46,976 nt of DNA, taken from Candidatus Dojkabacteria bacterium. Lineage in GTDB: Bacteria > Patescibacteriota > Dojkabacteria > SC72 > JAHDCA01. A program made the translations under genes and the position numbers. The DNA lies in contig JALWDW010000005.1 of assembly GCA_027036675.1 (NCBI GenBank), positions 1 through 46,976 on the forward strand. The letters are read 5' to 3'. The notes beneath the pieces are model-generated. The model did no database searches. It was not told the origin of the DNA and saw only the letters and a list, made by a program, of their open reading frames with translations. This document shows positions 19,561-38,660 of this stretch, one piece after another. Each line of letters begins with the position of its first letter. Position 1 is the first letter of the stretch.

Positions 19561-20844
19561 TCAACGTTGCAAATTATATTCTCTCAACACATCCAGCAAA
19601 GTCCCGTCACCACCCAAACGCCAGTACACCACCCCGGCAATATCATAACTCGTCACCAGATCAAAATGGTCGGACACCGACTCCTTCGACTGAAAATACA
19701 TGGTACATTGAATATGATTCCCACACTCATAGATGCTCATCGACTCACCTGTGGAGGCTATATACGATTGCTCCGTCTGCTCACCGAGGATGTCGGCGAC
19801 TTGCGTGTAAGTGTAAGAAGCCCGCCGACCGTCTGTACCCCATTCGTAAGCATACAACGGCAGACCGATTATCAATTTGTCCGCGGGTATGCGATCTTTT
19901 GCATAATCCATGATCTTAGTCAGCCAACCGGTCGGGGACACTGGACCGGGGTCGGGGTCGGCGGTATTGGTATAGTCGTAAGCCATCACTCGTACATAAT
20001 CCGCAATTTCCGCAATCCTAGCCCAGTCTTGCACCTGCCTTGTCTCAGGCGAGGACGAATAGGACACCCTACCCCATTTTGGTAATACAGTTACCGACAA
20101 AATCTTGTCCTTACGATGTAGTTTCCCTGCCAGCGCATCCAACATGAGAAAATAATTTTCTTTATCCTGCAAATATATTTGTTCGTAATCCAGATCTATA
20201 CCGTCGTATCCGTACGCATCCACTTCGTATACGATAGAGTTGATATGTCGCGTCATATTAACATCGGAATCCAGTACGGAATGCATCGTATCAGCGTCAA
20301 ACAAAGACACGGTAGGCACAACCGATATATCCCTATCCTCCTTCAAGTTCAACAGCTCTTTGTAAGTACCGGGTCGGCTGATTATCAAATCACCGTTGTT
20401 GTTCACATGGTACCAAACGGGAGATACCAAATTGACGAAAGAGTACCTCTTCACCGATTGCACACCCGCAGTATAATCCCATTGAGGTATCCACCCGCCG
20501 ATCAGCAAAGATCCACTACTACCCGTATCATTACCTACATCTTTTTCCTCGTCAACCGAAGACGATGATTTTTGGGTAATAATTTCTGTCTTATCCTCGC
20601 TCACGGGGTTTTGTGAATGATACTTTTCCACGTCAAACGGTACAAAATCGTCATCTTCGACCGCCTGTTGCACTGTAGTCCCCGTTTTTCCCGAGTCAGC
20701 CCCTGGCAACCATGTTTGCAATTTCGCATCCAGAACCGGTGAATAATTCTGATACAATAAGAAAGCTACAGATAAAACCAGCAATACAAATACGGCTTCT
20801 TTCAAAGATTTCAAGACTTGATAATTTCGCTTTTTCCCCTTCAT
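19561..20844 (-). CDS. Glycoside hydrolase family 18-like protein, membrane anchored
   Basis: It has an N-terminal TM helix and the GH18 catalytic motif YGYDGIDLDYE (DxxDxDxE). It starts 38 nt after ftsI, and tatD follows 6 nt later. Confidence 0.8.
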   Translation of the reverse strand: MKGKKRNYQVLKSLKEAVFVLLVLSVAFLLYQNYSPVLDAKLQTWLPGADSGKTGTTVQQAVEDDDFVPFDVEKYHSQNPVSEDKTEIITQKSSSSVDEEKDVGNDTGSSGSLLIGGWIPQWDYTAGVQSVKRYSFVNLVSPVWYHVNNNGDLIISRPGTYKELLNLKEDRDISVVPTVSLFDADTMHSVLDSDVNMTRHINSIVYEVDAYGYDGIDLDYEQIYLQDKENYFLMLDALAGKLHRKDKILSVTVLPKWGRVSYSSSPETRQVQDWARIAEIADYVRVMAYDYTNTADPDPGPVSPTGWLTKIMDYAKDRIPADKLIIGLPLYAYEWGTDGRRASYTYTQVADILGEQTEQSYIASTGESMSIYECGNHIQCTMYFQSKESVSDHFDLVTSYDIAGVVYWRLGGDGTLLDVLREYNLQR

Positions 20845-28931: not shown

Positions 28932-29756
28932 ATGAAATTCATCAGCGCAAATACTGGGTCAAAAAGGTTTCCACCTGATGCCAAGGTTGTTTATTCATGG
29001 GGTGCGCCTACTGGCAACATGTCTCCCAAGTATATTGCGGATAACGGGCAAACTCTGGCAAAACTATCGAAGCAATACACACGTTTGACTAAATTGTATA
29101 CGGCCCAATTGTCTGATTTATTTATGATGAATCCGGAGCACGGGGTGAATCACGCAATCGTTGATGAGTACGACAAGGCCGGTACGTCATCCATAGGACG
29201 ACTCGGCACAACTGAAGTCCCGAATTCGGATATCATCATCACCACCGACCGCAGTATAATACTCGGTGCGTTGCCGGCGGATTGCATCATCGCTGTGATC
29301 ACAGATGGCAATATTTTGGCATTGGTACACGCTGGCAGACGAGGTACAGATCTTATGATCGGGTACCATGCAATAGATGCAATACTCAAGGCCAGACCTG
29401 AGACAAATATCTCGAAGCTATCCGTCTGGATCAGTCCAAACCTTTCACCTGAAAGTGGTGCAATGCCACACTACGACACATTACTAAATACCGACATCTG
29501 GATCGACAATGGATTCTTACGTGAAGTTGAGGACAACCTTAACGGGCGATATGCATTGGACATCGAAGGTTTCTTCACGTGGCAACTCACCCAAAAAGGT
29601 ATCCCCATTTCAAATATTACTTCAACAGGATTGGATACATACCAAAATGCCTTAGAGCGTAAAACTTTTTCACATCGCCTCGCTTCACAAAGGGAAGACA
29701 TTCCAAACGGACGCTTTATCGTCACTGCTCAACTGACCTCTAGCAAAGACAAATAA
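28932..29756 (+). CDS. pgeF: YfiH/PgeF (DUF152, laccase-domain) family protein
   Basis: The signature region is LPADCIIAVITDGNILALVHAGRRGT, followed by the C-terminal FSHR. Confidence 0.8.
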   Translation: MKFISANTGSKRFPPDAKVVYSWGAPTGNMSPKYIADNGQTLAKLSKQYTRLTKLYTAQLSDLFMMNPEHGVNHAIVDEYDKAGTSSIGRLGTTEVPNSDIIITTDRSIILGALPADCIIAVITDGNILALVHAGRRGTDLMIGYHAIDAILKARPETNISKLSVWISPNLSPESGAMPHYDTLLNTDIWIDNGFLREVEDNLNGRYALDIEGFFTWQLTQKGIPISNITSTGLDTYQNALERKTFSHRLASQREDIPNGRFIVTAQLTSSKDK

Positions 29757-29773: not shown

Positions 29774-30490
29774 TTATTTAGCTGAACATATTACAACCCA
29801 CTCACCCTTGATGACTCCGTCCTCAAATACAGCTTTCAGGGATTCTTGCACCTCTACAGGGGTCCCAGTGAAAAACTCTTCATGCTTTTTCGTCATATCT
29901 TTCGCCAAAAAGACTTTGTGAAACTTATCCAACTGCACAAGCAGATCCAGCAATTTCATAATCCTATGCGGTGATTCGTACAGTACCGCGCTAAACCCTT
30001 CCGGGACCCGTGCCAAAAGTTCATGACGCCTCTTTTCGCTTTTTGGCAAAAAGCCCAAAAACACAAACTTATCTGTAGGTAAACCACTGACACTGAGAGC
30101 GGATATCACCGCAGACGCCCCGGGGACAGGGACGACTGCATATCCTTGTTCACGCAACCTTGCGACAAGTTTGTAACCTGGATCGGAGATCAACGGTGTA
30201 CCATTGTCACTTACCAACGCTAAATCCAAGCCTACATCCAGTTTTTCTTCAATCTTGCCAATCATCCGATCGTGATTTTGGTCTCTATACGACACCATCC
30301 GTGTGGTAATTTCGTACCGTTGAAACAATTTTGCCGTCTGTCGCGTATCCTCGGCTAAAACAAACGTCACTTGTTTTAGTATTTCTACAGCCCGAACCGT
30401 GATATCGCCCAGGTTACCGATGGGAGTGGCTACAACATACAAAGTGCCGGTACCTTTAGTTTTGTTATAGAGGGTTTGTCCCATCTTCAA
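29774..30490 (-). CDS. rsmI: 16S rRNA (cytidine1402-2'-O)-methyltransferase RsmI
   Basis: It has a tetrapyrrole-methylase fold with the N-terminus GTLYVVATPIGNLGDITVRAVEILKQVTFVLAEDTR. Confidence 0.9.
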   Translation of the reverse strand: MKMGQTLYNKTKGTGTLYVVATPIGNLGDITVRAVEILKQVTFVLAEDTRQTAKLFQRYEITTRMVSYRDQNHDRMIGKIEEKLDVGLDLALVSDNGTPLISDPGYKLVARLREQGYAVVPVPGASAVISALSVSGLPTDKFVFLGFLPKSEKRRHELLARVPEGFSAVLYESPHRIMKLLDLLVQLDKFHKVFLAKDMTKKHEEFFTGTPVEVQESLKAVFEDGVIKGEWVVICSAK

Positions 30491-30496
30491 AAATAA

Positions 30497-31966
30497 TCAG
30501 TTCGCCGGACGCAAATCGAGCCCCTCTACGAAGCTATCCAACGACTTTGCGCTCATGATGACAAATACGCTGTTTTTATCGGTATTTTCTGCGAGAAATC
30601 TCTTTATTTTCTCTGTCTTGGGAATATATGATACGTTTTTATTCGTTTTACCGATAACCTCCAGGAAGTCCTTCCCGTACACTCTCTTGTTCTCCGCTTG
30701 AGACGCTTTGACTATGATTTTGGGGATAATCACATGATCAGCCTGATCAAATACACCCTCGTAAGGTTTGATACTATCTTTGCCCTCGTTGTTTGAAAGT
30801 CGCGGATTAAACAATACAACCACGTTGTTTTCAGTGTAACGTGTACGGATCGCATCAAGAGTCGCTTTCACTTTTGGCGGTGAATGCGCGAAGTCATCCA
30901 ATACTATAGCGCCGGTAGGCAGGTATCCGAGAGGCTCCATTCTCCTTTTTACATTTTTAAAAGACTTCAATCCCGCCTGGATATCTTTTACCGATATTCC
31001 CAGATCGTGTAAAACCGCAATCACAGATAAAGCATTTTCCACATTGTGCATCCCTATAAGCGGAGACTGAAAGGTACCGAGGGATTCACCGGCATGTAAG
31101 ACCTCAAACGAGGTATATTGTTCACCAAATTGTATGTTTGTTGCGATATAATCGATCGCATCATCGGATACAGTTTCAGCCAACCTATTTGGCAACGAGT
31201 TTATCTTATAAGTCAAATATGTCCCGCCATTTACCATATGCTGCTCAAGCACTTTCTTGTTGTTTACACCACTCGCACAAACATAGAGTTTACCTTTGTT
31301 TTCAACGACCTTTTCACTAAGCATATAATATGCTTCCACATAGCTGTCCTCAGTAGGATAGATATTGACATGATCGTGTTGAGCTGATGTGAGGATAGCG
31401 TATTTCGGCGAATACCGGTAGAATTTTGGTACCTCATCGTGGTGGAATACCGAATAATACTCATCCCCTTCAATTACCGACCATTCGCTGTCCGTATGTC
31501 TGACTCCTCTTTCGAAGTCCAAAGGTTGTCCTCCCAACATAAATGACGGACTTTTGCCGGCTTCGTCGAGTATCCACGCAGTCAAGGCCGTAGTGGTCGT
31601 CTTGCCGTAACTGCCGGTCACGACTATGTTTTGCTCGTGGACTATGTATTTGTCAACAAGGTATACAAAGCCGTGCAAATCTTTGTTCAGTGTCTTCGCC
31701 TCCAAATACTCGGGGTTGTTTACATCTATCATCAAAGGGCCGCCACCTATAATGACAAGATCGGCGTCACGCACGTTCGCGAGGTCATCGTACTTGCCAA
31801 CATGTACAGCGATCCCATTGTTGTCGAACAGGCTTTTGGCAGGCTCCCAACAACTACTATCACTGCCGGTCACCTTCCAACCCAATTCACTCATCATCAC
31901 AGCAATCGGCGCTATCGCACTCCCGGCAATCCCTATAAAGTGTACATGTTTGATATCTGATTTCAT
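30497..31966 (-). CDS. murC: Mur ligase of the MurC/Mpl branch (Mpl-like central region)
   Basis: It contains HFIGIAGSAIAPIAVMMSELGWKVTGSD and TGSYGKTTTTALTAWIL. The central region EGDEYYSVFHHDEVPKFYRYSPKYAILTSAQHDH resembles Mpl (EADEYD.AFFDKRSKF.HY.P) more than canonical MurC (EADESDASF). Confidence 0.8.
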   Translation of the reverse strand: MKSDIKHVHFIGIAGSAIAPIAVMMSELGWKVTGSDSSCWEPAKSLFDNNGIAVHVGKYDDLANVRDADLVIIGGGPLMIDVNNPEYLEAKTLNKDLHGFVYLVDKYIVHEQNIVVTGSYGKTTTTALTAWILDEAGKSPSFMLGGQPLDFERGVRHTDSEWSVIEGDEYYSVFHHDEVPKFYRYSPKYAILTSAQHDHVNIYPTEDSYVEAYYMLSEKVVENKGKLYVCASGVNNKKVLEQHMVNGGTYLTYKINSLPNRLAETVSDDAIDYIATNIQFGEQYTSFEVLHAGESLGTFQSPLIGMHNVENALSVIAVLHDLGISVKDIQAGLKSFKNVKRRMEPLGYLPTGAIVLDDFAHSPPKVKATLDAIRTRYTENNVVVLFNPRLSNNEGKDSIKPYEGVFDQADHVIIPKIIVKASQAENKRVYGKDFLEVIGKTNKNVSYIPKTEKIKRFLAENTDKNSVFVIMSAKSLDSFVEGLDLRPAN

Positions 31967-32004: not shown

Positions 32005-33423
32005 CTATTTCACCGATTTCCCGTTAGATTTCTCTGTGTTTATATTTCCCAATTCTTCTTGTACTACGGCAACATCGTCCCACGGTATTTCGTGGATCCC
32101 GTCAATATTCATACTTTGTTCATGACCTTTACCGGTGATCAAGACAAGTGACCCGGGTTTGGCAAGTTGCAATGCTTGCCGTATCGCTTCGCGCCGATCG
32201 GGGATATCATATACTTCCACCTTCCGTCCACTGTCTTCCAACTCTCGATCTATACCACGCCTGATTTCACTATTTATTTTCTTGACCGATTCGCCTCTAG
32301 GATCTTCCGCAGTCAGTATCACCATGTCGGCGTAGCGGGAGGCCCATTTCCCCATTTCGGGCCTTTTGTATGTATCCCGCTTGGACGCCGCGCCGAAGAC
32401 TACGATGAGTTGCTTGTTCTCTTGTATGTCTCGAGCATATTTCAGCACTTGATGCAGGCTGTTTGGCGTGTGGGCAAAGTCCACGACTACGGAGTACGGT
32501 CGGGTTTGGATAATTTGCCATCTCCCCCTCAGGCCATGCAGAGAGGACAACGCTTTGACTGCGTCACGGGGTGCGACGGCCAACGCCGCCGCCGCGACAG
32601 CGGCGGCGGCGTTGTATGCGTTGTAAACTCCGCCCACCGGCAATCGCACAGCATACCGCTCGGATACTTCCGCATGAGTCTCATTTTGACCACGAACGAT
32701 AAGGTCAAATGATACGTGATTGATGTCCTCCGCCTTGATATGCTCGATCTTATAATCACAATCCTCATTCGTACCATACGTGCGAAGTTGAATATCCGGA
32801 GCTTGGGCCGATATTTGTTTGTACTTAGACAATAACCGGTCAAAACTTTTGTCGTCCCGATTTAATACCGCAAGACCTCCGGGTTTCAGTTTCTCGATCA
32901 GTCGTCCTTTGACATTGACAAGGTTCTCGTACGTACCGTGGTGGTCCAAATGTTCGTTGGATATATTGGTAAAGACGGCGACTTCGAATTTAATTCCCTC
33001 GACCCTATGTTGGTAAAGCCCGTGTGATGTTGTTTCCAAGACGACATACTTCAGTCCTTTTTTGACCGCTTGTGCCAAAAGCTTCTGCAAGACCCGCGGG
33101 TCGGGGTTGGTCACATGGAGCCCGGTGGGAGATGTATCGTCACCCAATTTCGCGGCTATGGTAGATATCAACGCAACTTTCCCAAGGTTCTCGTTTAGTA
33201 TATGGTAGATCATCGTAGATGTAGTGGTCTTCCCGTCGGTCCCCGTCACACCGATCACCGTCAGTTTCCGTGCGGGGAACCGATAGTACAGGTTCCAAAA
33301 CCACGCCTTAGGCAAATGCCAGAAGGTGTTGATCAGGGCCTGGCATTTGAAGTCGGGGTTCAACCCCAGGGTTGAACCCCAGGCTTGACATATGTGCGTA
33401 ACCACTCTGCGGATTCTCGACAT
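32005..33423 (-). CDS. murE: UDP-N-acetylmuramoyl-L-alanyl-D-glutamate--diamino acid ligase MurE
   Basis: It contains VIGVTGTDGKTTTSTMIYHIL, the Mur ligase central and C-terminal domains, and EDPRGE where DAP-type MurE enzymes carry DNPR. Confidence 0.88.
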   Translation of the reverse strand: MSRIRRVVTHICQAWGSTLGLNPDFKCQALINTFWHLPKAWFWNLYYRFPARKLTVIGVTGTDGKTTTSTMIYHILNENLGKVALISTIAAKLGDDTSPTGLHVTNPDPRVLQKLLAQAVKKGLKYVVLETTSHGLYQHRVEGIKFEVAVFTNISNEHLDHHGTYENLVNVKGRLIEKLKPGGLAVLNRDDKSFDRLLSKYKQISAQAPDIQLRTYGTNEDCDYKIEHIKAEDINHVSFDLIVRGQNETHAEVSERYAVRLPVGGVYNAYNAAAAVAAAALAVAPRDAVKALSSLHGLRGRWQIIQTRPYSVVVDFAHTPNSLHQVLKYARDIQENKQLIVVFGAASKRDTYKRPEMGKWASRYADMVILTAEDPRGESVKKINSEIRRGIDRELEDSGRKVEVYDIPDRREAIRQALQLAKPGSLVLITGKGHEQSMNIDGIHEIPWDDVAVVQEELGNINTEKSNGKSVK

Positions 33424-33454: not shown

Positions 33455-34567
33455 CTACCACCCCAAAAAAAGCCCCAAAACCGCGGCAAGTGCCCCAATC
33501 AGCCAAAATCTCATCACCACCTTCTCCTCAGACCAGCCCCTAAATTGCAGATCGAGGTGCAACGGGGCAATTTTAAAAAGCCTTCGCCCGCGCAATATCC
33601 TATACACACTTTGCAAAAGCGACGAGCTGATGATTATTACAAACATGACCCCAACCACCGGCAACAATACGACTCTGTCCAGAGCAAACGCGATTGAAGC
33701 CATCATAGCACCCAATGCCAATGAACCGACGTCCCCCATCTCAAATCGTGCTGGTTTGATATTGAAATACAAATATGCCAATAGAGTCCCGATTGTCACT
33801 GAAATCAGCAACGATAGATCTGGATTGCCTTTGTGAATGGCAAACACCAACAGTGCACCGAATACCGGGATCGCCAATCCCGACGCCAATCCGTCTGCGC
33901 CGTCCGCTATATTCACAGCATTTGCCATCGATACGACTGTAAATACAATAAGCACCGGCATCAGGATTCCCAGCTTCAACGGCTCATGAAAAGGCAACCA
34001 TATGGTATCCCAACCCAGTCGGTAGTATATCCACCAGGCCACCATCACTCCCGCCCCAATTTGGACGAGTATTTTTTCACCGGCCTGTATACCTTTACCC
34101 GGATTGGAACCAAGCCTATACCAAAAATTCAGGTACATATTCCAGGGCAATTCCAAAAACAACCTGACCCGCTTCAGTTTGCTCCTATGAACTCGTACAA
34201 GCCGCCATTGTTTCCCGACAGGACGCAAAATCCTTTTACGGCCGTATATATTCAACACATCGTCAAGGCCCCCAAGTAATGCGGTCCCGAGCAATACGAT
34301 GATTGGCACGTATGTATTGCCGTTCCAATTGAAAAGCAGCGTTAGTATCGCAGTGGTAAGCACGATCAATAACCCTCCCATGATCGGAGTACCGGCTTTC
34401 GTGCCTTTTGTGTATACAATATGCGCATATTCGTTTTTGCTCAGCCTGACTATCTTGAATTTGTACAATACATGTATAAGTACGGGAGCCCAAGCCATCG
34501 AGATTGCAAATGACACCAAGATAAAAAACATTGATTCTTGAAACAAGCCATCTATATGAAAATGCAT
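33455..34567 (-). CDS. mraY: Phospho-N-acetylmuramoyl-pentapeptide transferase MraY
   Basis: The protein is polytopic, with GGLDDVLNIYGR, NAVNIADGADGLA and the C-terminal HLDLQFRGW region. Confidence 0.95.
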   Translation of the reverse strand: MHFHIDGLFQESMFFILVSFAISMAWAPVLIHVLYKFKIVRLSKNEYAHIVYTKGTKAGTPIMGGLLIVLTTAILTLLFNWNGNTYVPIIVLLGTALLGGLDDVLNIYGRKRILRPVGKQWRLVRVHRSKLKRVRLFLELPWNMYLNFWYRLGSNPGKGIQAGEKILVQIGAGVMVAWWIYYRLGWDTIWLPFHEPLKLGILMPVLIVFTVVSMANAVNIADGADGLASGLAIPVFGALLVFAIHKGNPDLSLLISVTIGTLLAYLYFNIKPARFEMGDVGSLALGAMMASIAFALDRVVLLPVVGVMFVIIISSSLLQSVYRILRGRRLFKIAPLHLDLQFRGWSEEKVVMRFWLIGALAAVLGLFLGW

Positions 34568-34572
34568 GTCGG

Positions 34573-35430
34573 TTACTTCTTCCTCAAATTACTGTGACAT
34601 TCCTCAGATATAATATCATTGCGGAGTTTGTCAAAAAACTTCAATCGTCTCAATCCGTTATCATCGGCGTTGTTTTTCATACCCTCCAGGGTCCAGCATT
34701 TATTGGCTTTACTATCCCAATCCTTCCAATTCTGTGTCTCCAGAGGCTCATCGGGGGAGGTTATCTCGATACGCCCCCTACGTACACCGTTTTGATCACC
34801 GTACTGCTCGTTGGAATTAACATACTCTATCTCAACAACCTTATGGCCTTTTTTCAACACCTTGGACACCAACAGTACGTGATCTCCTCGTTTGACACCT
34901 TTGGTCCGTATAAGATCTCCCGGCATCACTTCATTGAGGTGGACTCTATCCGTGTTTTTGTCGGAAGTCAGGATGTTTGCGCTAATATTTGAAATAGGAC
35001 GTAATCTCACTTTGATATGGGATAATAAATTCCTATACGGGTAATCCAAATTGGACAGCAATGAACCGGCATGCGCATGATGAATCCAATAATCCAATAC
35101 CTGTGCGACAAAACCGGAACAATCAATACCCAACCCGTGTTCACTCATAAACTGACGGATTTGCTCTTTGCCCATTTTTTGTAGATCGACACCCTTCAAC
35201 TGAGCGATAATCCGAGTCTCCAGTGCGATCTCGTCAGGCGAGCCTTTACCGACCAATGATCGCAAATCCGAATGGGAACGTTTGACATTGCGATAATACG
35301 GCACAGGCACCCGGACGTCAAATATACGCAATCCTTCATACTGCTTGATAAATGACTCCACATAGGACGGCAATTTGTATTCAGTGCAAACACCATTACT
35401 TTTGTTTGTCGCAGATTTGGGATTTTTCAT
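34573..35430 (-). CDS. NlpC/P60-like cysteine hydrolase
   Basis: The catalytic Cys context is GLGIDCSGFVAQV, with a downstream His context MPGDLIRTKGVKRGDHVLLVSKV. There is no obvious signal peptide or TM helix. The gene ends 5 nt before mraY. Confidence 0.65.
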   Translation of the reverse strand: MKNPKSATNKSNGVCTEYKLPSYVESFIKQYEGLRIFDVRVPVPYYRNVKRSHSDLRSLVGKGSPDEIALETRIIAQLKGVDLQKMGKEQIRQFMSEHGLGIDCSGFVAQVLDYWIHHAHAGSLLSNLDYPYRNLLSHIKVRLRPISNISANILTSDKNTDRVHLNEVMPGDLIRTKGVKRGDHVLLVSKVLKKGHKVVEIEYVNSNEQYGDQNGVRRGRIEITSPDEPLETQNWKDWDSKANKCWTLEGMKNNADDNGLRRLKFFDKLRNDIISEECHSNLRKK

Positions 35431-35436
35431 ATGTTT

Positions 35437-36882
35437 TCAGCTGATTATAGCATTGTCGAGCAGAAACGCCGTATCTATATTTTCATGCGAACATGCACAT
35501 TGTATCCTGGAAAACTCCGTCCCGACAGATACGTTTTGTCCATCTGCAGTATGAGTATACAAAAATTCACCTTCACCGACATTACGGAATGCATATGTTT
35601 CCCTCAGCATCGAGCGGGTACTGCCAGCGTAAACACCGATTGGTTTTTTGAACTTGTAAGCGGTCGGAGCGTCCCCGGTATTGCGGGCTAGTATCTGTGA
35701 AGCCTTGATATTGTCAAACGCATGGGAATTATAATCCTCCATATACTCATCGATATTCCGCGCGTCTATCGGTGTACCCAACCAGCGGGGATTTACACTC
35801 GACATATTTCCCCGAACCTCATTGACAACTCCATACCTCTTATACCGTGCGGATTTGCTCGCACTCATGAACCAATCTATATGAAAAGCCTCGAGAGGTA
35901 TCCACCCTCGGCCTTCATCCAGCATTGCATGCATACTTACAGAGGCTGTCTGACGAGCGTTCACTTCTATGATGACTGGGCGGTCGGCATTCACCATGAA
36001 ATCCACCCCAAAAAGGCCATAATACGACCGGGCGGTCAGCATCCTCCCGATATTCTCTATCTCCGCACGCAACGCATCTTTTACATTGGCGGACAGTTCA
36101 TCAGACTTGGACCAATCATTGCCGACGGTCCCTCCATCCACATACGGAGTCAAACCCGGCAACCCGGTGATCTGAAAAGACAACCCGCCGTACAAAACGC
36201 CTTCGGGCAAGTTTACGGCATTGATAGTCCACGTCGCTCCGTCCAACATTTCACTGACACGCACTTGCAGCCCCGTATGCTTTTGGACGATCTTTTCGTA
36301 TTCTCCCTCACCTGTAATGAATTTCGTGCCTGTACCGGAATGCCCTCTATCAAGTTGGACAACCAGGTTTTGAGTACCCAACTTTTGAGTTAACTTTTTA
36401 TACGAACCCTCGGTCAGTGTTGTAATCACAGACTTCGGGATGGTGATGCCATACTTCACAAACAATTCGTGTTGAGATACTTTTTTCTCGATCGTTGCAG
36501 ACACTTGTGCGGAAGCGTTTAGCAGTCTATATCCAAACATAGAAGCCAATCTTTCAATCTTCTCCGATATTTTGAATACTATGATATTTGGTTTGTATCC
36601 ACTGTCGTGTAATCCGGTATTTTCCAAGTACTCATCTGTGTGAGAAGAAATAAATTCACGAACGATATCTTGTTGCATCAACTTAGCCGTACTACGAAAT
36701 ATAGGGTTCGGGGTTTTCAAGGTTTCTCCCAAAGAAAAAACACTGACACAAGTTTCCCGCAGGTATGGGATCATAGGATGATCGTCGATACAAACTATAT
36801 GGAAGTTTTTGTATAATTTCTCCAATCCGAGAGCCCTTTCCGGATCGTTTGTCAGGTAAAAGACAGGTTCGTTCATCACCAA
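35437..36882 (-). CDS. ATP-grasp family ligase, substrate unknown
   Basis: The ATP-grasp core contains LVVQLDRGHSGTGTKFI and YYGLFGVDFMVNADRPVIIEVNARQTAS. It has N- and C-terminal extensions of about 100 aa that I cannot assign. Confidence 0.75.
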   Translation of the reverse strand: MVMNEPVFYLTNDPERALGLEKLYKNFHIVCIDDHPMIPYLRETCVSVFSLGETLKTPNPIFRSTAKLMQQDIVREFISSHTDEYLENTGLHDSGYKPNIIVFKISEKIERLASMFGYRLLNASAQVSATIEKKVSQHELFVKYGITIPKSVITTLTEGSYKKLTQKLGTQNLVVQLDRGHSGTGTKFITGEGEYEKIVQKHTGLQVRVSEMLDGATWTINAVNLPEGVLYGGLSFQITGLPGLTPYVDGGTVGNDWSKSDELSANVKDALRAEIENIGRMLTARSYYGLFGVDFMVNADRPVIIEVNARQTASVSMHAMLDEGRGWIPLEAFHIDWFMSASKSARYKRYGVVNEVRGNMSSVNPRWLGTPIDARNIDEYMEDYNSHAFDNIKASQILARNTGDAPTAYKFKKPIGVYAGSTRSMLRETYAFRNVGEGEFLYTHTADGQNVSVGTEFSRIQCACSHENIDTAFLLDNAIIS

Positions 36883-36903
36883 ATTCGATAAAATACGTAT
36901 AGA

Positions 36904-37878
36904 TTATATACCACCGGTCATCAATATCACGCTGCCGTTCAAGCGCTCAGGGTTTTTCGCAGTCCGTACCGCCCGCACAAATCCCGCAATCGCCAACGCG
37001 CCCTCATGCGATGTAGACAAATGCTCCCCGGAGCTTATGATCTCGTCCAAGTCCTCTTGACGAATCATATTTCGCACTTCGCTGACCGCACGGTCGTCCA
37101 TAACCCACCCCCGACCTCCTGTCGCAACTACAGCTGCCAACACTTCTTTTTTCCTATGCGCCACTTTGTCCACGATACTGTCTACAATACTAGTTTTCGT
37201 AGCTCCGACCGCCCGGTCAAACTCCGGATCGATACTCTCGGCGATTGTATAAACCCTTGTCGTCTGTACTATATGCAATGCAGGGATACGAAATTCACGA
37301 TACTCGATATGTATTTTCGCAAATCCGTCATATATCCCCACCGTCGTCGTACCGCTTGAGACGGGTATGAAAAGTGCCGGTATCTCTCCGTACTTTTTAT
37401 ACGGAAATTCGTCATAAATCTCAACGGCTATATTTTCATACCCTTTGGTGGCGTATTTATCAGTGGAACCTCGCAACAATGTCGATCCATGCTCTGTAGC
37501 AAACATATGCGCGTGAGAGATCGTTTTCGCTTCAATATGTACGGTGGTATGGGCTGGATTGACATAATTGCGCAATTTGCTCAGTTTTGCGGAGCTGATA
37601 CGCGGACTTATGAAAATATCCAGGTTGATGGGTCGCTGCGTGGTCGTTTGGTTTAACCTGTCTACCACGTATGCACCAGCTATTGCGGAGTTACCGGACG
37701 ACGATATCACAAAATTTCGCCGTCCATCGTCTATATGGGCCAATACTTGTTCGTATATTCCTCGTATTTTATGCGAACCGGTCACATTTAGATCTTCTCT
37801 TTTCAACAGAATCTCGTAAGATTCACCATCCACATTGATTTTTATTGCCTCCAACGGAGTTTTTTTACTCATATCCAT
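36904..37878 (-). CDS. Fold-type II PLP-dependent enzyme (threonine synthase/dehydratase/serine racemase-like)
   Basis: The PLP-lysine motif is LKREDLNVTGSHKIRG. It also has the SSSGNSAIAGA loop and the glycine-rich loop PVSSGTTTVG. Confidence 0.8.
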   Translation of the reverse strand: MDMSKKTPLEAIKINVDGESYEILLKREDLNVTGSHKIRGIYEQVLAHIDDGRRNFVISSSGNSAIAGAYVVDRLNQTTTQRPINLDIFISPRISSAKLSKLRNYVNPAHTTVHIEAKTISHAHMFATEHGSTLLRGSTDKYATKGYENIAVEIYDEFPYKKYGEIPALFIPVSSGTTTVGIYDGFAKIHIEYREFRIPALHIVQTTRVYTIAESIDPEFDRAVGATKTSIVDSIVDKVAHRKKEVLAAVVATGGRGWVMDDRAVSEVRNMIRQEDLDEIISSGEHLSTSHEGALAIAGFVRAVRTAKNPERLNGSVILMTGGI

Positions 37879-37883
37879 GGCAA

Positions 37884-37892
37884 ATCATAACA
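37884..37892 (-). promoter_or_regulatory. Extended -10 element (TGtTATGAT) 5 nt before the ATG of the PLP-enzyme gene
   Basis: The minus strand reads ttTGTTATGATttgccATG. It would give a leaderless transcript heading the PLP - ATP-grasp - P60 - mraY - murE - murC - rsmI gene string. Confidence 0.4.
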
Positions 37893-37933
37893 AAATGCCA
37901 CGAAGGATGGAAGTTACATGCGGGCGTAATAAA

Positions 37934-37942
37934 TGTTATACT
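37934..37942 (+). promoter_or_regulatory. Extended -10 element (TGtTATACT) upstream of the small LysW-like ORF
   Basis: The sequence aaATGTTATACTctg lies about 33 nt before ATG 37975. It has the same ATGTTAnAnT form as the tmk and tyrS elements. Confidence 0.35.
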
Positions 37943-37974
37943 CTGCAAACAATTAAGATAATACGTATAATGAC

Positions 37975-38151
37975 ATGGAAGAGAACAATACTACTGTCAT
38001 TTGTCCTGAATGTGGCAACCCCATCACCGTGGAAGACGGCAAAGTAGTGGGCGACATCATCGAGTGTGAGACTTGCTTGACTACTTGTGAAGTCGTCGAT
38101 GTCGCTGATGATGGGGCATTGGAAATCGAACTGGTCGAAGAAGAGAAGTAG
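37975..38151 (+). CDS. Small zinc-ribbon protein with an acidic tail, LysW/ArgW (amino-group carrier protein)-like
   Basis: This is a 58-aa ORF, below the 60-aa cutoff of the supplied track: MEENNTTVICPECGNPITVEDGKVVGDIIECETCLTTCEVVDVADDGALEIELVEEEK. The pattern CPxCG-x(15)-CxxC-x(4)-EVV followed by an acidic tail matches LysW as I recall it. However, the C-terminus is EEEK rather than EDWGE. Confidence 0.55.
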   Translation: MEENNTTVICPECGNPITVEDGKVVGDIIECETCLTTCEVVDVADDGALEIELVEEEK

Positions 38152-38396
38152 CTGACCGACATACCGCATCTGCTGAACGTCCCTCCACGGAACGATTCTG
38201 ACAGTTTGGAAACCGCTACACCCTCAACATCAACCTTACTATCGGGATATCGCACCGAGGGTGTTGAGCTTTCATCTATGGGAAAAAGTCTCTCCCAACG
38301 GCGGGGATGGTCCTCGGGAATGGGAAGGCTGGCAGAACCGCGAAGGCTGTACTCGTGCAACAAGTAACCACACTCAGGTAACGCGCGATTCACCTG

Positions 38397-38613
38397 TGGT
38401 GAAATTTTCATTAAAGTTTCATCTGCGGTCGCACACAACCAAGCCTACTACGACTGGTGGTCGCAACTAGACCATCATTGATCTGTACGCAGTGTGAGAA
38501 TTTCATTGGTTTGTCATCCGCAGGAATGGAACCCATGGATTAGAGTGGCCGACAGGATAAGCAAATCAACGCCATGCGGATTTGTCAAAAGCTTTCATTC
38601 GCAGTCACACACT
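38397..38613 (+). repeat. Three degenerate repeat blocks spaced about 90 bp apart, each holding two TTTCAT/TTGTCA half-sites 11 bp apart
   Basis: Block 1 is TTTTCATtaaaGTTTCATctgcggtcgcacaca (38404-38436). Block 2 is ATTTCATtggtTTGTCATccgcagg (38500-38524). Block 3 is TTTGTCAaaagCTTTCATtcgcagtcacacac (38581-38612). Blocks 1 and 3 match at about 21 of 25 positions over AAAG(C)TTTCATYYGCRGTCRCACAC. Confidence 0.55.
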
Positions 38614-38660
38614 GCCATACACCACTTGCGACGGTTTGCAAATGAGGGCAACAGCAGCCC

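Follow-up and report, generated by a model that had tools for sequence, protein, structure and literature searches.

A four-gene set at the head of a mur gene run

Considered here are four genes that lie together within a 46,976-nucleotide stretch of DNA ('the window', i.e., the whole of the stretch that was analysed) from Candidatus Dojkabacteria bacterium, being positions 1 to 46,976 of the forward strand of contig JALWDW010000005.1 in GenBank assembly GCA_027036675.1. Three of these genes, encoding a pyridoxal phosphate (PLP) enzyme of the PALP type, an ATP-grasp ligase, and a P60-like cysteine amidase, head a minus-strand run that continues through mraY, murE, and a murC-like Mur ligase gene, and that ends with rsmI. 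The fourth gene, transcribed divergently from that of the PLP enzyme, encodes a small, LysW-like zinc-ribbon protein. The four are viewed here, tentatively and with somewhat less than even confidence, as a Patescibacteria-specific carrier-protein module of peptidoglycan-precursor synthesis, one which by analogy with LysW systems would load, transform, and then release an amino acid, would do so with a reversed polarity of attachment, and would have as its likeliest reaction the conversion of L-glutamate to D-glutamate.

A first-pass annotation of this DNA had described these genes as separated by gaps of only 5 to 38 nt, along with a divergent 58-aa open reading frame (ORF) found 96 nt away, and the ORF list of the window bears this out for all eight ORFs, coordinates included (Table 1). 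Going from the PLP enzyme gene to rsmI, the gaps are 21 (or 27), 6, 5, 31, 38, and 6 nt, with the P60-like gene and mraY joined as TAA-ccgac-ATG, that is, 5 nt apart. The run had been taken as well to be one transcription unit. Consistent with this, no minus-strand terminator-like site was found between its genes, P60-mraY included, nor was a clear promoter found between P60 and mraY, in both cases as based on a consensus scan.

The divergent intergenic region presumably carries the promoters of both the PLP enzyme gene and the putative carrier gene. A plus-strand promoter-like site is present there (9 of 12 matches, with TG), this being a consensus match only. A minus-strand promoter-like pair, GTGATA-16-TATAAT (10 of 12 matches and likewise a consensus match only), is found within the last codons of the PLP enzyme gene, directly upstream of the ATP-grasp start, and may represent an internal promoter for the ATP-grasp/P60/mraY part of the run. 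An ORF of 161 aa that overlaps the putative carrier gene on the minus strand looks spurious, and the stretch of approximately 500 nt that separates the convergent putative carrier gene and clpC holds neither a convincing ORF nor an Rfam match.

Table 1. Positions within the window of the module genes, of the genes and signals around them, and of other features mentioned in the text
Feature	Position	Strand	Basis
LysW-like small protein, 58 aa	37975-38151	plus	PF21344 above cut-off
Divergent intergenic region, 96 nt, PALP/carrier	37879-37974	.	ORF coordinates
PLP enzyme (PALP)	36904-37878	minus	ORF list and Pfam/NCBIfam
ATP-grasp ligase	35437-36882	minus	ORF list and Pfam
P60-like cysteine amidase	34573-35430	minus	ORF list and motif/fold support
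mraY (phospho-MurNAc-pentapeptide transferase)	33455-34567	minus	TIGR00445 at 1.8e-52
murE	32005-33423	minus	TIGR01085, 379 bits vs cut-off 257
murC-like Mur ligase	30497-31966	minus	TIGR01082 murC 257.9 bits (cut-off 335); mpl 199.9 bits
rsmI (16S rRNA 2'-O-methyltransferase), end of tight run	29774-30490	minus	TIGR00096, 217.6 bits vs 167.9
Promoter-like site	37913-37942	plus	Consensus match only
Promoter-like pair	36903-36930	minus	Consensus match only
Stretch between carrier-gene and clpC ends	38152-38660
161-aa ORF	37953-38438	minus
YfiH/PgeF-like gene	28932-29756	plus
GH18 glycosyl hydrolase	19561-20844	minus
RuBisCO large-subunit homologue, 528 aa	15674-17260	plus
Ig-like/M23 protein, 1068 aa	9280-12486	plus

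The four proteins

The small protein scores 29.6 bits against PF21344 (Zn_ribbon_LysW; cut-off 27), a model that 25 of 25 family members tested match as well, and the family profile matches the LysW structures 3wwl (8e-8) and 5k2m (1e-7), these being from Thermus and Thermococcus. Invariant across the family alignment are C10, C13, C31, C34, and K58. Judged from its sequence, that is, the globular domain is a true LysW homologue, and the description of this ORF in the first-pass annotation as a zinc-ribbon/acidic-tail protein of the LysW type stands. It scores below cut-off with the dedicated models, i.e., with 13.9 bits versus 53.2 for TIGR01206 (lysW) and 29.6 versus 75 for NF041070.

It is in the tail that the family departs from LysW. 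The protein is strongly acidic (pI of about 4, with 17 Asp or Glu among its 58 residues), and in the window it ends with ...LVEEEK. Endings as counted among the related loci are EEEK (28), DEGK (12), EDEK (2), and ETEK (1), and a library-wide search yielded approximately 28 further small relatives, all of them ending with Lys (EEYK, LEEK, ESEK, EEDK, EQEK, and others), along with one canonical LysW ending with EDWGE. That canonical tail, the terminal Glu of which binds the substrate amine by its gamma-carboxylate, is absent from the present family. The only invariant tail residue instead is the C-terminal Lys, no acidic position being invariant, with position -3 a Glu in at least 90% of sequences. 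Two variants of the protein, P0330 (103 aa) and L085:6717-7004 (-), consist of a tandem double zinc ribbon and of a form with a long poly-Asp N-terminal extension, both of which end with IEEEK. By analogy with LysW, the small protein may be a covalent carrier, and its C-terminal Lys would be the candidate attachment site.

The ATP-grasp ORF runs to 481 aa from a TTG (36882) or to 479 aa from an ATG two codons downstream (36876). The latter is probably the true start because a near-identical homologue, P0001, has 479 aa, and with that start the gap to the PLP enzyme gene is 27 nt. The protein matches PF02655 (ATP-grasp_3) with 31.5 bits versus a cut-off of 23.2. Its AlphaFold model (predicted local distance difference test score, i.e., pLDDT, of 93.5) has as its top Foldseek matches PurD, the L-amino-acid ligase 3vot, biotin carboxylase, and PurK, with template-modelling scores of about 0.5; there are 669 PDB fold matches at E<=1e-3, the top 50 of which are all ATP-grasp enzymes. 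K104, K134, E306, and N308 are invariant in the family. Nearest to its profile in the PDB are the L-amino-acid ligase LdmS (7r8p, 6e-6) and BesA (8yi6, 1e-5), and weak NCBIfam matches are seen to BesA (L-propargylglycine--L-glutamate ligase), to MfnD (tyramine--L-glutamate ligase), and to 'PRK06524 biotin carboxylase'. BesA and MfnD both activate the gamma-carboxylate of glutamate.

Two more familiar identities for this ligase were considered and rejected. LysX was not found among its profile and fold matches, with RimK reaching only E~1 in the profile comparison with the PDB. As to Ddl, no such model is seen among the NCBIfam or Pfam matches, and the best Ddl in the PDB is at E=0.095. As predicted from sequence and model, the protein is a carboxylate-amine ligase that represents a new ATP-grasp family, one lying toward the amino-acid-ligase side of the superfamily.

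For the PLP enzyme (324 aa) the family level is clear, with 88.7 bits against PF00291 (PALP) versus a cut-off of 35 (5.5e-25). The family profile's best PDB matches are to short threonine synthases, i.e., 2zsj, 6cgq, and 2d1f, at about 1e-32 (8e-33 for the best), with serine/threonine dehydratases and serine/aspartate racemases well behind (1e-16 to 1e-20). The PLP lysine K37 (within GSHKIRG), the SSSGN loop (S59-S60-S61-G-N63), and the Gly/Ser/Thr-rich phosphate loop that includes S174-S175-G176 are invariant or nearly so; in fold-type II PLP enzymes the SSSGN loop holds the substrate alpha-carboxylate. Invariant too are the basic residues K26, R39, K98, R136, and R242, which would be suited to an acidic partner. 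In our reading of the profile alignment, the threonine synthase segment 'NSVNPYR' aligns with 'LRGStddna' of this family, leaving its Arg unmatched, and the family possesses an invariant R136 of its own. The N-S-x-N-P-x-R segment with its Arg is what we take to bind the substrate phosphate in threonine synthases.

The PLP enzyme thus is, to the extent that its sequence can tell, a fold-type II enzyme related to threonine synthase, though divergent from it and specific to Patescibacteria. An orthodox threonine synthase, a threonine dehydratase, and SbnA were each rejected as identities, with NCBIfam scores 4 to 10 times below cut-offs (for the threonine synthase models, no more than 64.7 bits versus 266). 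A function as a PLP racemase is possible. Relatives are named inconsistently by different sources, that is, as threonine synthase, threonine dehydratase, PLP enzyme, or hypothetical. The first-pass annotation had left the specificities of both the ATP-grasp and the PLP enzymes unassigned, with a standard Ddl and a standard threonine synthase as the identities that would have ended its argument, and both enzymes are found outside of those families.

The 'P60' label that had been given to the third enzyme (285 aa, pI 9.3) is upheld in part. The window protein scores 16.5 bits against PF00877 (NLPC_P60), which is under the cut-off of 23, with precomputed PF00877 matches seen in a few relatives (P0126, P0134, P0185, and the L085 gene). 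What upholds the label is an invariant Cys104, found within a GIDCSG motif, and an invariant His184, both as seen in a 39-sequence alignment, together with weak fold matches to Spr/MepS. Position 205 is His or Asn, that is, Asn in the window protein and His in most relatives. In the model (pLDDT 92.2), Cys104 opens a helix (104-118), His184 is on a strand (183-194), and position 205 is on the next strand noted (197-207). The best fold matches, all of them to NlpC/P60 proteins and all weak (E of about 8e-3, probability 0.85-0.97), are Spr/MepS, 7v6s, 2evr, and 2hbw, with 2evr and 2hbw being gamma-D-glutamyl-L-diamino-acid endopeptidases. From motif and model, the protein would be a divergent member of the NlpC/P60 type, with a Cys-His-His/Asn triad that is ordered as expected for that type. 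The typical substrates of NlpC/P60 enzymes are gamma-D-glutamyl amides, which they hydrolyse.

Sequence analysis found no hydrophobic N-terminus, signal peptide, or transmembrane segment in this protein, and natural fusions of ATP-grasp with P60-like domains exist (P0004, 739 aa, and P0028, 718 aa). Because it is in some genomes fused to the ligase and is without a signal peptide or membrane segment, the P60-like protein is predicted to work in the cytoplasm rather than on the sacculus. A role as a secreted cell-wall hydrolase was rejected on these same grounds, the ligase partner of the fusions being cytoplasmic.

Linkage and gene orders across Patescibacteria

Module loci were confirmed in at least 307 species-level genomes, a lower bound since the scan employed one genome per species and one strict peptide pattern. 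The locus counts that follow rest on 80 species-representative loci that were kept out of those 307, with ORFs called and then searched using profiles built from the window proteins, and with the view of each locus reaching 8-10 kb. Relatives of the ATP-grasp ligase in the protein collection number 79, all of them from Patescibacteria or without a named source; one distant homologue, P0079, was set aside given its unrelated, conflict-system context. Labels on the loci include Dojkabacteria/WS6, Nomurabacteria, Magasanikbacteria, Uhrbacteria, Taylorbacteria, Paceibacterota, Parcubacteria, and 'Saccharibacteria'. Some further labels call for comment, as metagenome-assembled genomes named 'uncultured Gammaproteobacteria bacterium' (L040, L044, L045, L047, L051, L052, L054, L065, L066, L068, L071, L075, L080, and L081) share the Magasanikbacteria/Parcubacteria gene order; because that order is the one seen in Magasanikbacteria loci, these labels are probably wrong.

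The module consists of two tight pairs, usually found together and always among mur genes. The first pair is the ATP-grasp and P60-like genes, which are adjacent or fused in 67 of the 71 loci with enough downstream sequence. The second pair is the LysW-like and PLP enzyme genes: both are present in 44 loci, just one of them is present in only 2, and in 42 of those 44 the two are divergent and adjacent. All four genes are present in 25 of the 31 loci with full (7.5-kb) flanks. This is linkage far beyond chance, and a lack of conserved linkage in relatives, which the first-pass annotation had named as something that would end its proposal, is thus not what is seen. As to its placing of the four beside mraY in particular, that is upheld only in part. 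Specifically, mraY is present in 24 of the 31 full-flank loci and follows the P60-like gene on the same strand, no more than 3.5 kb away, in 33 of 58 loci, so this linkage is frequent but not obligatory; the constant feature is an embedding among mur genes generally.

At least six gene orders place the module among murB, murC, murD, murE, murF, and mraY, with neighbouring Mur ligases typed by NCBIfam and best match. Writing gene direction as < or >, arrangement A is carrier< PLP> ATP-grasp> P60> mraY> murF< murE>, and arrangement B is mraY< ... carrier< PLP> [small methyltransferase] ATP-grasp> P60> murC>. Arrangement C is murC> carrier< PLP> ATP-grasp> P60> mraY>, and arrangement D is murB< ATP-grasp> P60> mraY> [ATE_C-like] murC> carrier< PLP> murD<. 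Lastly, arrangement E is mraY> murD> carrier< PLP> ATP-grasp> ftsW ..., and arrangement F, from L085, is P60> murD> carrier< PLP> ATP-grasp>. The window's own order is carrier, PLP, ATP-grasp, P60, mraY, murE, murC, rsmI. The murC-type ligase that adjoins the carrier gene in arrangements C and D is of the same type as that of the window, and rsmI flanks the ATP-grasp gene in 8 other loci. In three arrangements (L049/L057; L085; and L048/L055/L067/L076/L083/L086) the Mur ligase that immediately adjoins the carrier-PLP pair is MurD.

Using E. coli DdlB and MurI as queries, no Ddl or MurI homologue was found within 1.16 Mb, consisting of loci L001-L087 plus the window. A search of the same 1.16 Mb for Alr gave one match, L005:14185-15450, which is a canonical alanine racemase beside the module. 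Genes of the LysZ, LysY, LysJ, and LysK types, i.e., kinase, reductase, aminotransferase, and M20 peptidase, were found neither in the window nor in the related loci.

Several genes recur alongside the module. In 18 Dojkabacteria-type loci a gene of approximately 170 aa, absent from the window, is found between the PLP enzyme and ATP-grasp genes (L003:7504-8004 (+), also L019, L024-L029, L032, L034, L036, L038, and L039). Its product combines an N-terminal membrane helix with a small class-I S-adenosylmethionine methyltransferase domain (ELGAGDGR motif), and its methylation target may be the carrier, the cargo, or else a lipid-linked precursor. A 228-aa ATE_C-like protein, with an aminoacyl-tRNA transferase fold (PF04377, 4.7e-7; L072:4064-4750 (+)), is encoded between mraY and murC in 31 arrangement-D loci, and genes of the FemAB type are found in arrangement-A loci (L001, L009); in lineages with these genes the stem peptides are probably branched by tRNA-dependent addition. 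A YfiH/PgeF-like gene, of the Cu-oxidase_4 or peptidoglycan-editing-factor family, is found in the window between murB and rsmI, and in a Nomurabacteria locus such a gene (L001:5825-6553) directly adjoins the carrier gene.

The window otherwise holds mraZ, rsmH, a penicillin-binding protein (PBP) gene, murA, murB, murG, ftsW, ClpC, and a RuBisCO large subunit. It is of a Patescibacteria type, with its cell-division and cell-wall genes in a scattered cluster; murD, murF, and ddl were not found within it. Its MurE, at residues ~362-366, has EDPR aligned with the DNPR motif of E. coli MurE, with the Arg kept. That motif, which is responsible for diaminopimelate (DAP) recognition, is presumably a mark of meso-DAP-type MurE ligases, and the presence of its Arg is notable in a group thought to be without amino-acid biosynthesis. 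The RuBisCO homologue, found here in a small-genome region, we take to be typical of the nucleoside-salvage (form II/III-like) enzymes of the Candidate Phyla Radiation (CPR). Two further proteins, one with Ig-like domains plus a C-terminal M23 peptidase and the other a GH18 glycosyl hydrolase encoded just downstream of the ftsI-type PBP gene, may be enzymes that remodel either a host's wall or the cell's own.

A putative carrier cycle, its rivals, and its known counterparts

The first-pass annotation had offered two hypotheses. In one, the four genes make up a carrier pathway in which the ATP-grasp enzyme, acting as LysX does, ligates an amino acid to a glutamate of the carrier tail, the PLP enzyme modifies the tethered substrate, and the P60-like amidase releases it. 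Its load, modify, and release logic still supplies the best framework. The hypothesis needs revision, however, because the ligase is not LysX-like, because the invariant tail residue is Lys rather than Glu, and because tethering by the amine would block the PLP enzyme. That is, PLP enzymes need a free amino group on their substrates, so LysX-style tethering, with the substrate amine occupied, would be unsuitable.

As so revised, the acidic zinc-ribbon protein would be the carrier and its invariant C-terminal Lys the attachment residue. The ATP-grasp ligase would activate a carboxylate of the cargo, joining a free amino acid to the Lys epsilon-amine, with the gamma-carboxylate of L-glutamate the likeliest group to be loaded. 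Polarity would be opposite to that of LysW, so that the tethered amino acid would keep both its alpha-amino and its alpha-carboxylate group free. The threonine-synthase-like PLP enzyme would then form an aldimine with that amino acid, inversion to the D form being the likeliest reaction. Lastly, the P60-like amidase would cut the gamma-(D)-glutamyl-lysine amide, a release which would be D-specific, to provide D-Glu to the Mur ligases while regenerating the carrier.

Different observations point to different parts of this cycle. With the terminal Glu of LysW replaced by an invariant terminal Lys, a reversed polarity would be the simplest reading, and since the PLP enzyme keeps the alpha-carboxylate loop, the cargo would be tethered by a side-chain carboxylate, likely that of Glu or Asp. 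The ATP-grasp and P60-like genes being adjacent, or indeed fused, suggests a ligase and an amidase that act on the same bond, just as the divergent pairing of the carrier and PLP enzyme genes suggests a PLP enzyme that acts on the carrier. D-Glu is favoured as the product because NlpC/P60 enzymes cut gamma-D-glutamyl amides, because BesA and MfnD are weak relatives of the ligase, because MurD can be a neighbour, and because MurD2/MurL supplies a precedent; the lack of MurI and Ddl homologues in the 1.16 Mb of module neighbourhoods is counted in its favour as well. In the MurD2/MurL system an ATP-driven, tethered, one-way inversion of L- to D-glutamate is encoded beside murD (PMC8788868). Taken generally, a carrier cycle that, by analogy, feeds peptidoglycan synthesis appears evenly balanced between being correct and not, while the specific L-Glu to D-Glu version, with its particular substrate and reaction, is on its own rather unlikely.

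A number of points weigh against this cycle. Covalent loading is argued from analogy with LysW. We know of no threonine-synthase-like racemase, and racemases match the PLP enzyme profile only at 1e-16 to 1e-17 versus 1e-32 for threonine synthases. MurC, MurE, or MurF adjoin the module as often as does MurD, so the neighbourhood gives no special weight to stem-peptide position 2. In L049 and L057 there is no P60-like gene nearby, and the release step for that reason may not always use the P60-like protein. In approximately 6 of the 31 full-flank loci the ATP-grasp and P60-like genes are present without a carrier-PLP pair within 8 kb. Finally, a CPR MurI is reported to be experimentally active, this going by the title of a reference that is cited in PMC11974145.

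Two rivals appear to be possible, if doubtful. The first is the carrier hypothesis as originally written, with the alpha-amine of the cargo joined to a carboxylate of the tail, whether that of a Glu side chain or the alpha-carboxylate at the C-terminus. From a second, free substrate (O-phospho-serine or O-phospho-homoserine, for example) the PLP enzyme would then derive an aminoacrylate-type intermediate and couple it to the side chain of the tethered cargo, and the P60-like amidase would release a non-canonical diamino-dicarboxylic acid as a DAP surrogate, such as lanthionine or cystathionine, for use by MurE. The homology of the carrier with LysW fits well with this, as does its Glu-rich tail with position -3 so often Glu, the closeness of the PLP enzyme to threonine synthases along with its invariant basic residues, and the Arg that the window MurE retains within its DNPR motif; CPR bacteria generally being without amino-acid biosynthesis, a short route to something DAP-like would be useful to them too. 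No Glu position in the tail is invariant, however (EEEK, DEGK, EDEK, ETEK), whereas the terminal Lys is, and the ATP-grasp protein is related to LysX, ArgX, and RimK only at the superfamily level. By our alignment reading the 'NPYR' Arg of threonine synthase, taken to be the phosphate-binding one, has no counterpart, and a beta-replacement by a free thiol would need no carrier at all.

The second such rival, about as doubtful as the first, does away with the covalent carrier and grows out of the other of the original hypotheses, in which a D-amino-acid side chain or cross-bridge is added in the manner of Aslfm/Racfm. Here the ATP-grasp and P60-like proteins would act on soluble UDP-MurNAc-peptides (Aslfm-like side-chain or cross-bridge addition along with trimming, amidation, or proofreading), the PLP enzyme would supply a free D- or non-canonical amino acid, and the zinc ribbon would be a scaffold for, or regulator of, the PLP enzyme. 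It is the ATP-grasp/P60-like pair that is linked most tightly to mraY and murB, and loci that possess this pair without the carrier-PLP pair are readily explained. Aminoacyl transferases of the FemAB-like and ATE_C-like kinds as common neighbours suggest modified stems, and NlpC/P60 enzymes normally cut stem peptides. Left unexplained, on the other hand, are the LysW homology and a strictly invariant C-terminal Lys found on a flexible acidic tail, the four genes occur together in 25 of the 31 full-flank loci, and neither an Aslfm relative nor one of a PLP-independent, MurI-type Asp/Glu racemase was detected. In its Aslfm/Racfm-like form this hypothesis is without specific support because the conserved carrier gene goes unexplained and because the nearest relatives of the PLP enzyme are threonine synthases.

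Quite unlikely is a third possibility, that the ATP-grasp enzyme is a non-orthologous D-Ala-D-Ala (or D-Ala-D-X) ligase, the PLP enzyme the matching racemase, and the P60-like protein a dipeptidase or proofreader, all of them feeding MurF. The mur-cluster neighbourhoods, which are the usual place for ddl, lack a Ddl homologue over 1.16 Mb, but this absence covers 8-kb neighbourhoods and says nothing on the rest of the genome. The ligase does resemble dipeptide-forming L-amino-acid ligases and the module is beside murF in one arrangement type; its similarity to Ddl, however, is insignificant, a canonical alanine racemase is beside the module in L005, and the carrier is left without a role. Very unlikely indeed is that the small protein is a modified end product or a regulator of Mur enzymes (with a graspetide-like Glu-Lys lactam or a tubulin-tyrosine-ligase-like cycle in which a C-terminal residue is attached and removed). 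Although the ATP-grasp enzyme has weak similarity to proteins of the TTL and RimK types, and conserved acidic residues could form an isopeptide with the terminal Lys, the Glu positions vary, the PLP enzyme is left without a role, and a ligase/PLP enzyme/amidase set better fits metabolite-carrier systems.

Returning to the reverse-polarity carrier cycle, its strongest form is a bold one and is improbable as such: It would be a first 'reverse-polarity' amino-acid carrier, that is, a LysW homologue which holds its cargo by the epsilon-amine of a C-terminal Lys, a PLP enzyme which reworks the free alpha-centre, and, for much of the Patescibacteria, a third, ATP-driven route to D-glutamate (or to another D- or non-canonical stem-peptide residue) beside MurI/Dat and MurD2/MurL. 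Even bolder would be a variant in which MurD acts directly on the carrier-bound residue. The first-pass annotation had known of neither of its arrangements as a described system in a dcw operon, and a literature search likewise found no description of the four-gene module. What it would represent is a carrier-protein pathway in which the enzymes, the tail chemistry, and the role in the cell are all new, and the reverse-polarity mechanism, if proven, would count as categorically new. A true Lys-tail carrier would extend the LysW principle to the opposite polarity and to PLP chemistry, and would be a lineage-specific cell-wall target as well. Patescibacteria, i.e., CPR bacteria, account for much of bacterial diversity and are for the most part uncultured; although thought to have almost no amino-acid biosynthesis, they do make peptidoglycan. 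That the module is conserved within their mur operons suggests that a step toward the stem peptide is missing or is taken in an alternative way, and recognizing the module corrects the database names 'threonine synthase', 'threonine dehydratase', 'biotin carboxylase', and 'hypothetical protein'.

Among known systems, the LysW/ArgW pathways (LysW-LysX-LysZ-LysY-LysJ-LysK of Thermus, Sulfolobus, and Thermococcus, and the amino-group carrier protein, or AmCP, of Streptomyces) come first. Like the module, these possess a homologous zinc ribbon with a flexible acidic tail, cluster the carrier gene with those of an ATP-grasp enzyme, a PLP enzyme, and an amide hydrolase, and share with it a load-modify-release logic. 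They differ in having the Glu of EDWGE as tail residue rather than an invariant terminal Lys, in having a ligase of the LysX/ArgX/RimK type, which the module's is not, and in possessing a LysZ kinase and LysY reductase, both of which the module is without. The PLP enzyme of LysW/ArgW is a fold-type I aminotransferase, whereas that of the module is of fold type II and related to threonine synthase; the hydrolase is an M20 metallopeptidase rather than papain-like NlpC/P60, and the context is Lys/Arg biosynthesis rather than mur genes of Patescibacteria. Three of the four defining features of LysW/AmCP systems, that is, the tail motif, the LysX-type ligase, and the LysZ/LysY/LysJ/LysK partners, therefore are not seen with the module.

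MurD2/MurL, from Xanthomonas, is found in organisms that are without the ordinary D-Glu enzymes, and with it D-centres of peptidoglycan are made on a tethered substrate (PMC8788868). As with the proposed module, conversion of L-Glu to D-Glu is ATP-consuming, one-way, and takes place on a tether, the module's D-Glu function being in its case conjectural. The MurD2/MurL tether, however, is UDP-MurNAc-L-Ala, its epimerase is PLP-independent and of unknown fold, and unlike the module it has no protein carrier, ATP-grasp enzyme, PLP enzyme, or amidase. Aslfm/Racfm, the D-aspartate side-chain system of Enterococcus faecium, resembles the proposed module in that a racemase and an ATP-grasp ligase work together toward peptidoglycan. 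The bond that Aslfm makes, between a D-amino acid's side-chain carboxylate and the epsilon-amine of a Lys, is of the kind proposed here for carrier loading. No sequence relationship of the module proteins to Aslfm or Racfm was detected, and the Aslfm acceptor is Lys3 of UDP-MurNAc-pentapeptide rather than a protein, Racfm is PLP-independent, and neither carrier nor amidase is involved.

Two further systems bear comparison. Glutathionylspermidine synthetase/amidase unites in one protein an ATP-grasp ligase and a CHAP/papain-like amidase, the latter of which breaks the amide bond that the former makes, a layout which is that of the ATP-grasp-P60 fusions described above. It acts on small molecules (glutathione and spermidine), belongs to other families, and has no carrier, PLP partner, or link to the cell wall. 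In CysO-CysM-Mec, of Mycobacterium, the carrier CysO is a ubiquitin-like beta-grasp protein with a GG-thiocarboxylate end that is activated by adenylation rather than by an ATP-grasp enzyme, and Mec, the protease that releases the amino acid, is a JAMM metalloenzyme. There, a fold-type II PLP enzyme uses the C-terminus of the carrier as co-substrate, and it is in this, a fold-type II PLP enzyme working together with a small carrier protein, that the likeness to the module lies.

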